Part shown: piece after piece, positions 13,032-13,715 of the stretch | How positions within the stretch are numbered: position 1 is the first letter of the stretch | Layout: each line of letters begins with the position of its first letter | Program-made: the position numbers and the translations under genes | Notes under the pieces: model-generated | What the model was told of the DNA's origin: nothing | The model's input: only the letters and a program-made list of their open reading frames with translations | Database searches by the model: none | Source: a virus | Length of the DNA: 20,346 nucleotides | Reading direction: 5' to 3' (one strand) | Virus genome (UHGV): UHGV-0243115

Positions 13032-13057
13032 CAGGGCGATGTGCGATTATCGCCCTG
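13032..13057. other. Hairpin immediately 3' of the Zn-ribbon gene (9-bp arms CAGGGCGAT/ATCGCCCTG, 8-nt loop)
   Basis: cagggcgat gtgcgatt atcgccctg; shares its arm sequence with the hairpin at 13698-13715. Confidence 0.6.
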
Positions 13058-13069
13058 GTTTGAGGGGGA

Positions 13070-13660
13070 TCAGGTGTTATTTTTATCTGTCGTCAGTGGG
13101 CTAAACCATCCACAATTTACATCGCATGACTGATGCGTTCTGTCCTCGTGTTTCTCCTGCCACAATGCTTTTCCGCCAGCCTTTATGATGGCTCTTTCAA
13201 CATCCCGCTCGTATCGCAAGGGCTGAAATACGTCATTAATGAAATATTCGCTTATGTCCGGAAGCGATACTGCAAAATTATTTGTTTGTTGCGCCGTCCT
13301 GCTATGCAGCAAAGCGGCATGCTTTAATGCGTCCTGTGCTTTCTGGAATTTAAGTGCATAGTCAGTGGCGATTTTTTCCAGTTCAGCGATTCGGTTGTCT
13401 TTGGTTTCCAGCCAATCAAGTAGCGCCAATACTTCAGGATCCCCGACATCCAACACTGTTACGCGTGATTTTTCATAATGTTCGTCAGCAAGAGTTCGGC
13501 CAATTTTGAAATCTCCATCATCACCATAACCGGAGCAGGCATAAACAACCTGTGCTCCAGATATTCGCTGAATTGACATTTCCTCGCCGCAAATAGGGCA
13601 TTTCGGTACTGGCACAGGTGAATAACGTTCACGTAATGCCTGATAGTTGATTTCGCTCAT
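13070..13660 (-). CDS. Hypothetical Zn-ribbon + coiled-coil protein (hotspot cargo gene of unknown function)
   Basis: 196-aa ORF with AAGGAG RBS; N-terminal Cys cluster (KCPICGEEM ... YACSGYGDD), central heptad-like region (LALLDWLETKDNRIAELEKIATDYALKFQKAQDALK), C-terminal CDVNC. Not recognised as any P2 gene. Confidence 0.7.
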   Translation of the reverse strand: MSEINYQALRERYSPVPVPKCPICGEEMSIQRISGAQVVYACSGYGDDGDFKIGRTLADEHYEKSRVTVLDVGDPEVLALLDWLETKDNRIAELEKIATDYALKFQKAQDALKHAALLHSRTAQQTNNFAVSLPDISEYFINDVFQPLRYERDVERAIIKAGGKALWQEKHEDRTHQSCDVNCGWFSPLTTDKNNT

Positions 13661-13697
13661 TAAGTCGTTCTCCTTGTTTATGTTCTGAGGTGGAGAG

Positions 13698-13715
13698 CAG
13701 GGCGAACTCGCCCTG
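13698..13715. other. Hairpin between the ParR-like gene and the Zn-ribbon gene (8-bp arms CAGGGCGA/TCGCCCTG, 2-nt spacer)
   Basis: cagggcga ac tcgccctg; no U-tract follows. Confidence 0.6.

Follow-up and report, generated by a model that had tools for sequence, protein, structure and literature searches.

Why should a single phage gene be framed by two hairpins that share their arms? The question arises from the UHGV virus genome UHGV-0243115 (20,346 bp; hereafter the window, by which we mean the whole stretch analysed), in which the 196-aa cargo gene ead (13070–13660, − strand) is flanked by hairpin U (cagggcga-ac-tcgccctg, 13698–13715, − strand) and hairpin D (cagggcgat-gtgcgatt-atcgccctg, 13032–13057, − strand). 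The window matched Xuanwuvirus P884B11, a P88-like phage of the P2 family (Peduoviridae), at 100% identity, and many E. coli chromosomes carry the same segment as a prophage, among them that of E. coli 31B19CPO012 (NZ_CM151364.1; 100% identical). Read leftward on the − strand, the order of elements is gpA–parM–parR–U–ead–D–cos flank, with the portal gene beyond on the + strand. The answer that we favour, with somewhat better than even confidence and from sequence comparison, is that U and D are duplicates of a single backbone stem-loop of the P88-like phages and that they likely act as stem-loops of the transcript.

Shared arms and a site with a single hairpin

Both palindromes were located where the first-pass annotation had placed them, on either side of the ead open reading frame (ORF). 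As ead is encoded on the − strand, U lies past the parR stop codon (by 8 nt) and ahead of the ead start codon (by 37 nt), and D lies 12 nt past the ead stop codon, where it directly abuts the conserved cos flank. In the mRNA sense, U reads CAGGGCG-AGUU-CGCCCUG, with a 7–8-bp stem, and D reads CAGGGCGAU-AAUCGCAC-AUCGCCCUG, with a 9-bp stem and an 8-nt loop. The arm sequence CAGGGCGA is present in exactly four copies in the window, each of which is an arm of U or D, and shuffled versions of the window contained a mean of 0.71 copies, with none of 100 reaching four. An empirical null was assembled from 433 GC-rich perfect hairpins collected over ~1 Mb of unrelated viral contigs; two such hairpins shared an 8-mer with a frequency of 0.0016 and a 7-mer with a frequency of 0.008. 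The arm match of this pair is thus unlikely to be due to chance, as had been claimed at first pass. A candidate similarity between the flanks of U and D beyond the arms was dropped (p 0.22 and 0.09).

Distant ParR homologues were located on their contigs to find further forms of the locus. A Hafnia phage whose ParR is 72% identical was found to have no cargo at all between parR and the cos flank, only a single hairpin, CAGGGCGAT-N8-ATCGCCCTG. The site reads parR-TAA-AACATTGT-CAGGGCGAT-aatcatgt-ATCGCCCTG-CTGCACGATAGCGCACAAATTTGCACAATTTTTTCG…, the stretch after the second arm opening with CTGCACGATAG, and it is carried by L299, L300 and L313–L319. The 9-bp arms of this hairpin are identical to those of D, and so contain the 8-nt arms of U, and its loop resembles that of D. 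On the 5′ side it matches U, both in the flank (AACAT) and in the 8-nt distance from the parR stop codon; on the 3′ side it borders on the cos flank, as D does. Flanks and arms together indicate that the single hairpin is the positional homologue of both U and D, and the shared arms therefore reflect common descent from one backbone stem-loop.

This arrangement bears most directly on coincidence, that is, on the possibility that two unrelated GC-rich stems of terminator type happen to share an 8-mer. Stems of the GGGCG type are common here, the window holds ~2-fold more CAGGGCG than expected even when the hairpins are set aside, some alleles (L009 and the CCCTT variants) do not keep the outer CA/TG of D, and the generic 14-base motif matches more than 100 unrelated viral contigs of high GC content in IMG/VR, at approximately the chance rate. 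Against this stand the empirical probability of 0.0016 for the given pair and the Hafnia hairpin, homologous in position to both U and D and with arms identical to both. Chance is largely refuted because of the empty-site arrangement, and we regard it as barely credible.

Two histories would lead to the present forms. Either the stem-loop was duplicated when ead was inserted, or a deletion across the 8–10-bp direct repeats CAGGGCGA and TCGCCCTGCT produced the empty form. Short-loop and long-loop forms are both found in deep branches (L320, L301 and L307), so the two histories are not told apart; one gain or loss event across repeats is implied in either case by the compared sequences. The contrast of an empty form with one hairpin and a filled form with two, a modest new point, gives a precise picture of one such event and provides a marker for delimiting cargo.

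Hairpins at the edges of a variable hotspot

The hotspot beside cos in P2-family phages is well known for harbouring anti-phage genes. The present locus is part of this known hotspot: it is situated between gene A and portal gene Q beside cos, and its gene content differs among close relatives between identical flanks. A variable P2-like hotspot between gpA and the portal gene, adjoining cos, was described by Rousset et al. 2022 (PMC9122126). Unlike in the usual P2 hotspot of that study, the slot here starts after the parMR module, not after gpA, and the cargo gene ead has neither a promoter of its own nor a recognisable defence function.

Relatives were gathered as 12 GenBank/RefSeq loci, 80 IMG/VR loci found through ParR, and ~34 P88-like metagenome contigs found via the last 19 nt of parR; the cos flank served as an anchor in 80 of the 93 surveyed loci. 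A ParR scan of species genomes returned three loci only, and a search of plasmid par loci matched only copies of the same phage. From the parR stop codon to the cos flank (…TTGTGCACTATTGTGCA, ending at 13031), the cargo falls into at least 25 length classes of 536–3714 bp, and 43 distinct junction pairs were counted among 80 loci. The right edge is invariant: homology between cargo types stops exactly at 13031/13032 in all 12 GenBank/RefSeq loci, and the cos flank itself (12997–13031) contains three TTGTGCA repeats.

At the left edge, a CAGGGCG/CGCCCTG stem follows the parR stop codon at a distance of 8 nt in 74 of the 93 assessable loci. Beyond these, the centre is G-AAA-C in three loci, and a single nucleotide is deleted in one. 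At least seven different loops occur (agtt, aact, catc, tatc, tatt, tgtt and gaaac), and 3′ of the stem each cargo type has its own sequence, with at least nine unrelated forms in all. The stem reaches 10 bp in many alleles (CATCAGGGCG…CGCCCTGATG); the window allele, with CTC after the stem, pairs over 7–8 bp only. Among 5426 complete E. coli genomes, U was found in 436, at a median of one place per genome, and every match lay beside parR. Most alleles without U have another stable stem-loop within ~60 nt of the parR stop codon, and such replacements fit a need for structure and not for sequence. Another modest new point is that, in the branch that carries parMR (P88-like), a conserved stem-loop right after parR forms the left edge of the hotspot. 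PMC9122126 and a 2026 preprint on the same hotspots describe the content and mention no hairpins or terminators at the edges, and a search of the literature on P88 parMR or hairpins returned nothing on boundary hairpins.

In two loci (L080 and L250), the U loop is AACT, exactly what the usual AGTT gives when reverse-complemented; this minute inversion inside the palindrome is of the kind that intrastrand template switching produces. A resemblance between the sequence after U in the DUF4760 cargo type and the cos flank was marginal (p 0.05) and was dropped.

Thirty IMG/VR contigs carry hairpin D, which always adjoins the cos flank and nearly always lies behind the 3′ end of an Ead/Ea22 gene; it is also present in 175 of the 5426 E. 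coli genomes, at a median of one place per genome and once per prophage. It follows Ead/Ea22 even in loci that have a different 5′ portion of the cargo and no U (L050, L072, L301 and L307), and U occurs without D in most loci.

These distributions answer the objection, foreseen at first pass, that the motif might be a generic element scattered over unrelated host positions. Elements of the repetitive extragenic palindromic (REP) type have hundreds of dispersed copies in the host chromosome. Unlike REP elements and the bacterial interspersed mosaic elements (BIME) tested with them, U and D are found at this phage locus only, approximately once per prophage, and to our knowledge they do not resemble the REP consensus. 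A scan of IMG/VR with the generic motif CAGGGCG-N4-CGCCCTG yielded at least 120 stretches; 11 of the 112 matches examined were P88-like, and the rest were in contigs with a median GC content of 66%, as chance would produce, so that the scan was rejected as uninformative about a mobile element.

The same data were weighed for a further explanation, in which the hairpin would be an active recombination joint where the phages acquire, shed and exchange cargo time and again, much like a promoter-less version of the promoter-early stem-loops (PeSLs) of T4-type phages. Exchange would proceed by short-homology recombination or by template switching at the palindrome, possibly during rolling-circle replication, and hairpin-bounded genes would be excised as circles. 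The contrast of one hairpin in the empty site with two around the gene in the filled site speaks for such a joint, as do the homology breakpoint of at least nine cargo types exactly at the 3′ edge of U, the chimeras in which one loop type is joined to the flank of another (L075 and L248), the reverse-complement loop of L080/L250 as a template-switch signature, a related hairpin family (CGGGGYG..CGCCCYG) at internal module junctions, and the PeSL precedent itself (PMC2839356). PeSLs and the present hairpins alike comprise conserved stem-loop copies that flank a non-essential ORF in a variable region, with an indel between copies among relatives, and U and D share 8–10 nt per arm. PeSLs, in turn, have a strong sigma-70 promoter, proven terminators, many copies per genome and detectable minicircles (Arbiol et al. 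2010, PMC2839356), unlike the present locus, where no sigma-70 promoter is joined to the stem-loop, the sense strand has no U-tract, and the two copies in the window are at one locus only, with a single gain or loss event implied by the empty site.

Other observations argue against a joint in repeated use. Most cargo types have no second copy and are bounded on the right by the cos flank; D occurs without U (L050, L072, L301 and L307) and U without D in most loci; and a hairpin does not always precede ead, because the ORFs overlap in L050/L072. A breakpoint at the stem edge is equally expected from selection keeping a functional stem-loop by parR. There is neither a promoter component nor a dedicated recombinase, the neighbours being parM, parR, gpA and the portal gene, and no empty or precisely deleted allele was found in the 5426 E. 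coli genomes. We consider a joint of this kind unlikely, although, if true, it would explain in concrete mechanistic terms how cargo turns over at the cos-proximal defence hotspot. As to the related idea of the first-pass annotation, that the palindromes are recombination sites delimiting a cassette, the part that stood is a historical footprint, with one hairpin in the empty and two in the filled form. A delimiting role is not supported: most cargo types lack D, each hairpin persists without the other, and no recombinase is associated. A dedicated site of the attC or att type, for which every cassette would be bounded and a cognate recombinase encoded alongside, is not supported on either count.

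Probable stem-loops in the leftward transcript

In − strand RNA, U folds with −13 kcal/mol (z −3.2), and D folds together with a neighbouring hairpin with −21.5 kcal/mol (z −4.95), the energy of D being about −17 to −21 kcal/mol. Both are GC-rich stem-loops placed shortly past a stop codon (8 nt for U and 12 nt for D), as in Rho-independent terminators, with which they also share a stem of 7–10 bp and a short loop. On the + strand, U is the top terminator-like site, with the tail ATGTTGTGTT and the U-rich stretch AUGUUGUGUU. An allele from strain RM8082 (L297) has an opposite-strand DUF4760 gene that converges on parR and stops 17 nt before U (tail UGUUGUGUUAUUC), and U is the sole hairpin between the two convergent genes. 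Rfam covariance models run over 12500–15300 gave no match with E up to 1.

The position of D was compared with that of other cargo ends. Most leftward-gene cargo types end at the cos flank with a canonical terminator of their own, consisting of a stem and a T-run (examples are AAAACGCCCTCTTCCAGGGCGTTTATTT, AAAGCGCCTCAGGGGCGCTTTTTGT and GAAGCGCCGATAAGGCGCTTTTTTT). D holds exactly that position but has no T-run on the − strand, and ~30 nt beyond it the backbone contributes a weak terminator-like hairpin, GUGCACAAAUUUGCAC then AAUUUUUUUG, with a T7 run (13021–12996, − strand; the terminator-like site itself is at 13021–13006). Since the invariant cos flank directly borders D and the Hafnia hairpin in every case, and most leftward cargo types also have a GC-rich palindrome there, we also considered that D and the empty-site hairpin might be part of the packaging signal, as a DNA structure that terminase needs by the TTGTGCA repeats. 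Yet the cargo types with rightward genes (L003, L008, L038 and L055) lack a palindrome by the cos flank and are widespread prophages, some palindrome-less types were recovered as phage isolates, and such palindromes as do occur in other types are unrelated in sequence. A packaging function is accordingly very improbable.

Between U and the ead start codon there are only 37 nt, and this leader (13661–13697, − strand) holds the Shine–Dalgarno sequence GAACAUAAACAAGGAG; the same leader precedes the first gene both in the Ead-type cargo and in the unrelated P88 (ClpX zinc-finger) type. The − strand showed no promoter-like site over 12500–15300, including the parR–ead gap. Because the leader leaves no room for a separate promoter and the strand offers no promoter-like site, ead would be transcribed through U, and U cannot then be a full terminator in that direction. 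Co-transcription of parM, parR and ead is thus inferred from anatomy and conservation.

Changes within the stem are informative about strand and molecule. One pair changes from G-C to A-T in a compensatory manner in L051, L054 and L243 (CAGGGCA…TGCCCTG), and another pair does so in L320 (CAGAGCG…CGCTCTG; 11-bp stem; ParR 68% identical). Single transitions were counted five times: in U, C to T in the outermost pair, A to G in the second pair and C to T in the 3′ arm (CGTCCTG); in D, C to T in the outermost pair and A to G in the second pair. All five yield a G·U pair in − strand RNA and an A·C mismatch if the + strand is read, and the other stem changes are rare pair-breaking transversions. In a hand-picked family alignment of U types, D types, the Hafnia hairpin and L320, 94.9% of the cells were paired and three pairs changed on both sides, and none of 500 shuffles reached the observed pairing or covariation. 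Compensatory and wobble-compatible changes together favour a hairpin in the parR/ead mRNA, that is, a stem that may be selected as an RNA structure in the − strand transcript.

They also bear on a proposal made at first pass, that the palindromes are paired operators for a dimeric regulator; this would be ParR, a winged-helix protein or another phage regulator that brackets and controls the cargo gene. In favour, both are perfect inverted repeats with shared 8-nt arms, and the stem is far more conserved than the loop. The spacer between half-sites, however, varies (3, 4 or 8 nt), symmetric compensatory and one-sided wobble changes are tolerated in several lineages, and other cargo types have unrelated terminators in place of D. 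For ParR in particular, the parC-like repeats upstream of parM (15032–15142; ACGGGATT..AATCCCGT) are unrelated and show no similarity to CAGGGCG. The operator proposal was not upheld, and we hold it to be highly unlikely.

Of the options raised at first pass, transcript-insulating hairpins are best supported: both hairpins follow stop codons, terminators hold the D position elsewhere, other stem-loops replace U where it is missing, and the stem changes are compensatory or wobble-compatible. In the resulting model, U and D would act as RNA stem-loops in the leftward parM–parR–ead transcript. U may be an intercistronic structure that shields the parMR message from 3′ exonucleases or attenuates read-through, letting some transcription reach ead and so uncoupling the expression of the partition genes from that of the cargo. 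D would close the message of ead, with the weak backbone terminator and cos following shortly after, and transcription of the opposite strand could in addition be terminated intrinsically at U, as with convergent cargo of the L297 type. An RNA-level role of this kind is the most likely one, judging from anatomy and conservation.

Several results weigh against this reading of the two hairpins. A single Hafnia lineage, sequenced in one project (seven contigs, two metagenome-assembled genome (MAG) assemblies among them), is the source of the empty site, and a synthetic empty-junction query of the 5426 E. coli genomes found no empty allele. The L006 type and L055 have no convincing stem-loop after parR. 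No U-rich tract follows either hairpin on the − strand, where the tails are CUCUCCACCU (U) and CUGCACAAUA (D), which sets both apart from canonical intrinsic terminators of the sense strand. Unbiased alignments of the distinct sequences (16 rows for U and 10 for D) had 90.6% and 95.6% of their cells paired, respectively, and contained one compensated pair in U and none in D; variation was scarce and the shuffles were not significant. The stronger covariation result is that of the family alignment, whose rows were hand-picked. Lastly, the wobble pattern has p ~0.03 from five events, under the assumption of equal transition odds and with phylogeny and mutation bias ignored.

Intercistronic stem-loops that stabilise mRNA are known from enterobacterial operons, as in the REP sequence between malE and malF. 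U and D are like them in being GC-rich stem-loops a few nt past a stop codon inside an operon and without a U-tract, a likeness compatible, by analogy, with shielding of the upstream message from 3′ exonucleases and with differential expression. The locus also resembles the morons of temperate phages in the P2-family hotspot, in that a non-essential gene occupies a defined slot, the content differs strongly between phages that are nearly identical otherwise, and stem-loops stand at the module edges. By analogy, then, the hairpins can be likened to the stem-loops that bound accessory genes (morons) and to intercistronic stabilisers, and most likely they are ordinary transcript stem-loops that also mark cargo gain or loss. 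If the stem-loop merely insulates transcripts, this would be ordinary phage operon architecture; if it also promotes exchanges, it would explain the turnover of the hotspot.

Cargo gene and neighbouring features

The cargo gene had been annotated at first pass as encoding a Zn-ribbon protein, an assignment that we revise. Its product is Ead/Ea22-like (PF13935, E 2e-32; PHROG 368, of unknown function; 'ead/Ea22-like family protein' in RefSeq), and no match to a Zn-ribbon was found in the library; a CxxC motif is present near the N-terminus. PADLOC gave no defence annotation for the gene. In three relatives (L301, L302 and L307; ParR 76–79% identical), an SSB-family gene and further small genes precede Ead/Ea22 in the slot, and D still closes it at the cos flank.

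The cargo also contains another family of hairpins, CGGGG[C/T]G-cac[c/t]gt-CGCCC[C/T]G. Its stem resembles that of U and D, and its second pair is A-U, G·U or G-C. In cargo coordinates, the sites are at position 26 in L050/L072/L079, 598 in L307, 649 in L301 and 425 in L034. The hairpin is ~35 nt upstream of a 174-aa cargo gene, and in L034 it lies between convergent genes.

To the right of the slot, the three TTGTGCA repeats (13000–13031) are spaced by 10–11 bp and lie ~45 bp from position 12986, to which the end of the linear P884B11 record (LR595891) maps; they are probably terminase or cos accessory sites. The portal gene (Q; 11533–12579, + strand) is followed directly by a perfect 11-bp palindrome, CGGGGCATAAA-aaa-TTTATGCCCCG (12606–12630), which is kept in all relatives and is likely the bidirectional terminator of the late P–Q transcript.

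To the left, parR (13724–14035, − strand) is the last backbone gene before the hotspot and encodes a protein of the StbB/Plasmid_stab_B family (PF10784, E 8e-23; PHROG 2515, partition protein). Upstream in the leftward block, parM (14040–14999, − strand) encodes an actin-like segregation ATPase (PF06406, PF21523). Two 38-nt direct repeats between gpA and parM (15032–15069 and 15105–15142), each with the ACGGGATT..AATCCCGT palindrome, look like the parC centromere/operator of the ParMR system. Replication gene A (gpA; 15076–17898, − strand) encodes a protein of 940 aa, in which the Phage_GPA domain spans residues 179–503 only, and the long N- and C-terminal regions have no family match. Near-identical phage DNA has been deposited as small 'plasmids' (NZ_CP148288.1, 34.5 kb; NZ_CP049283.1, 26.8 kb). 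Together with the ParMR module, these deposits fit the suggestion that P88 may exist in integrated and episomal states (PMC7969092).

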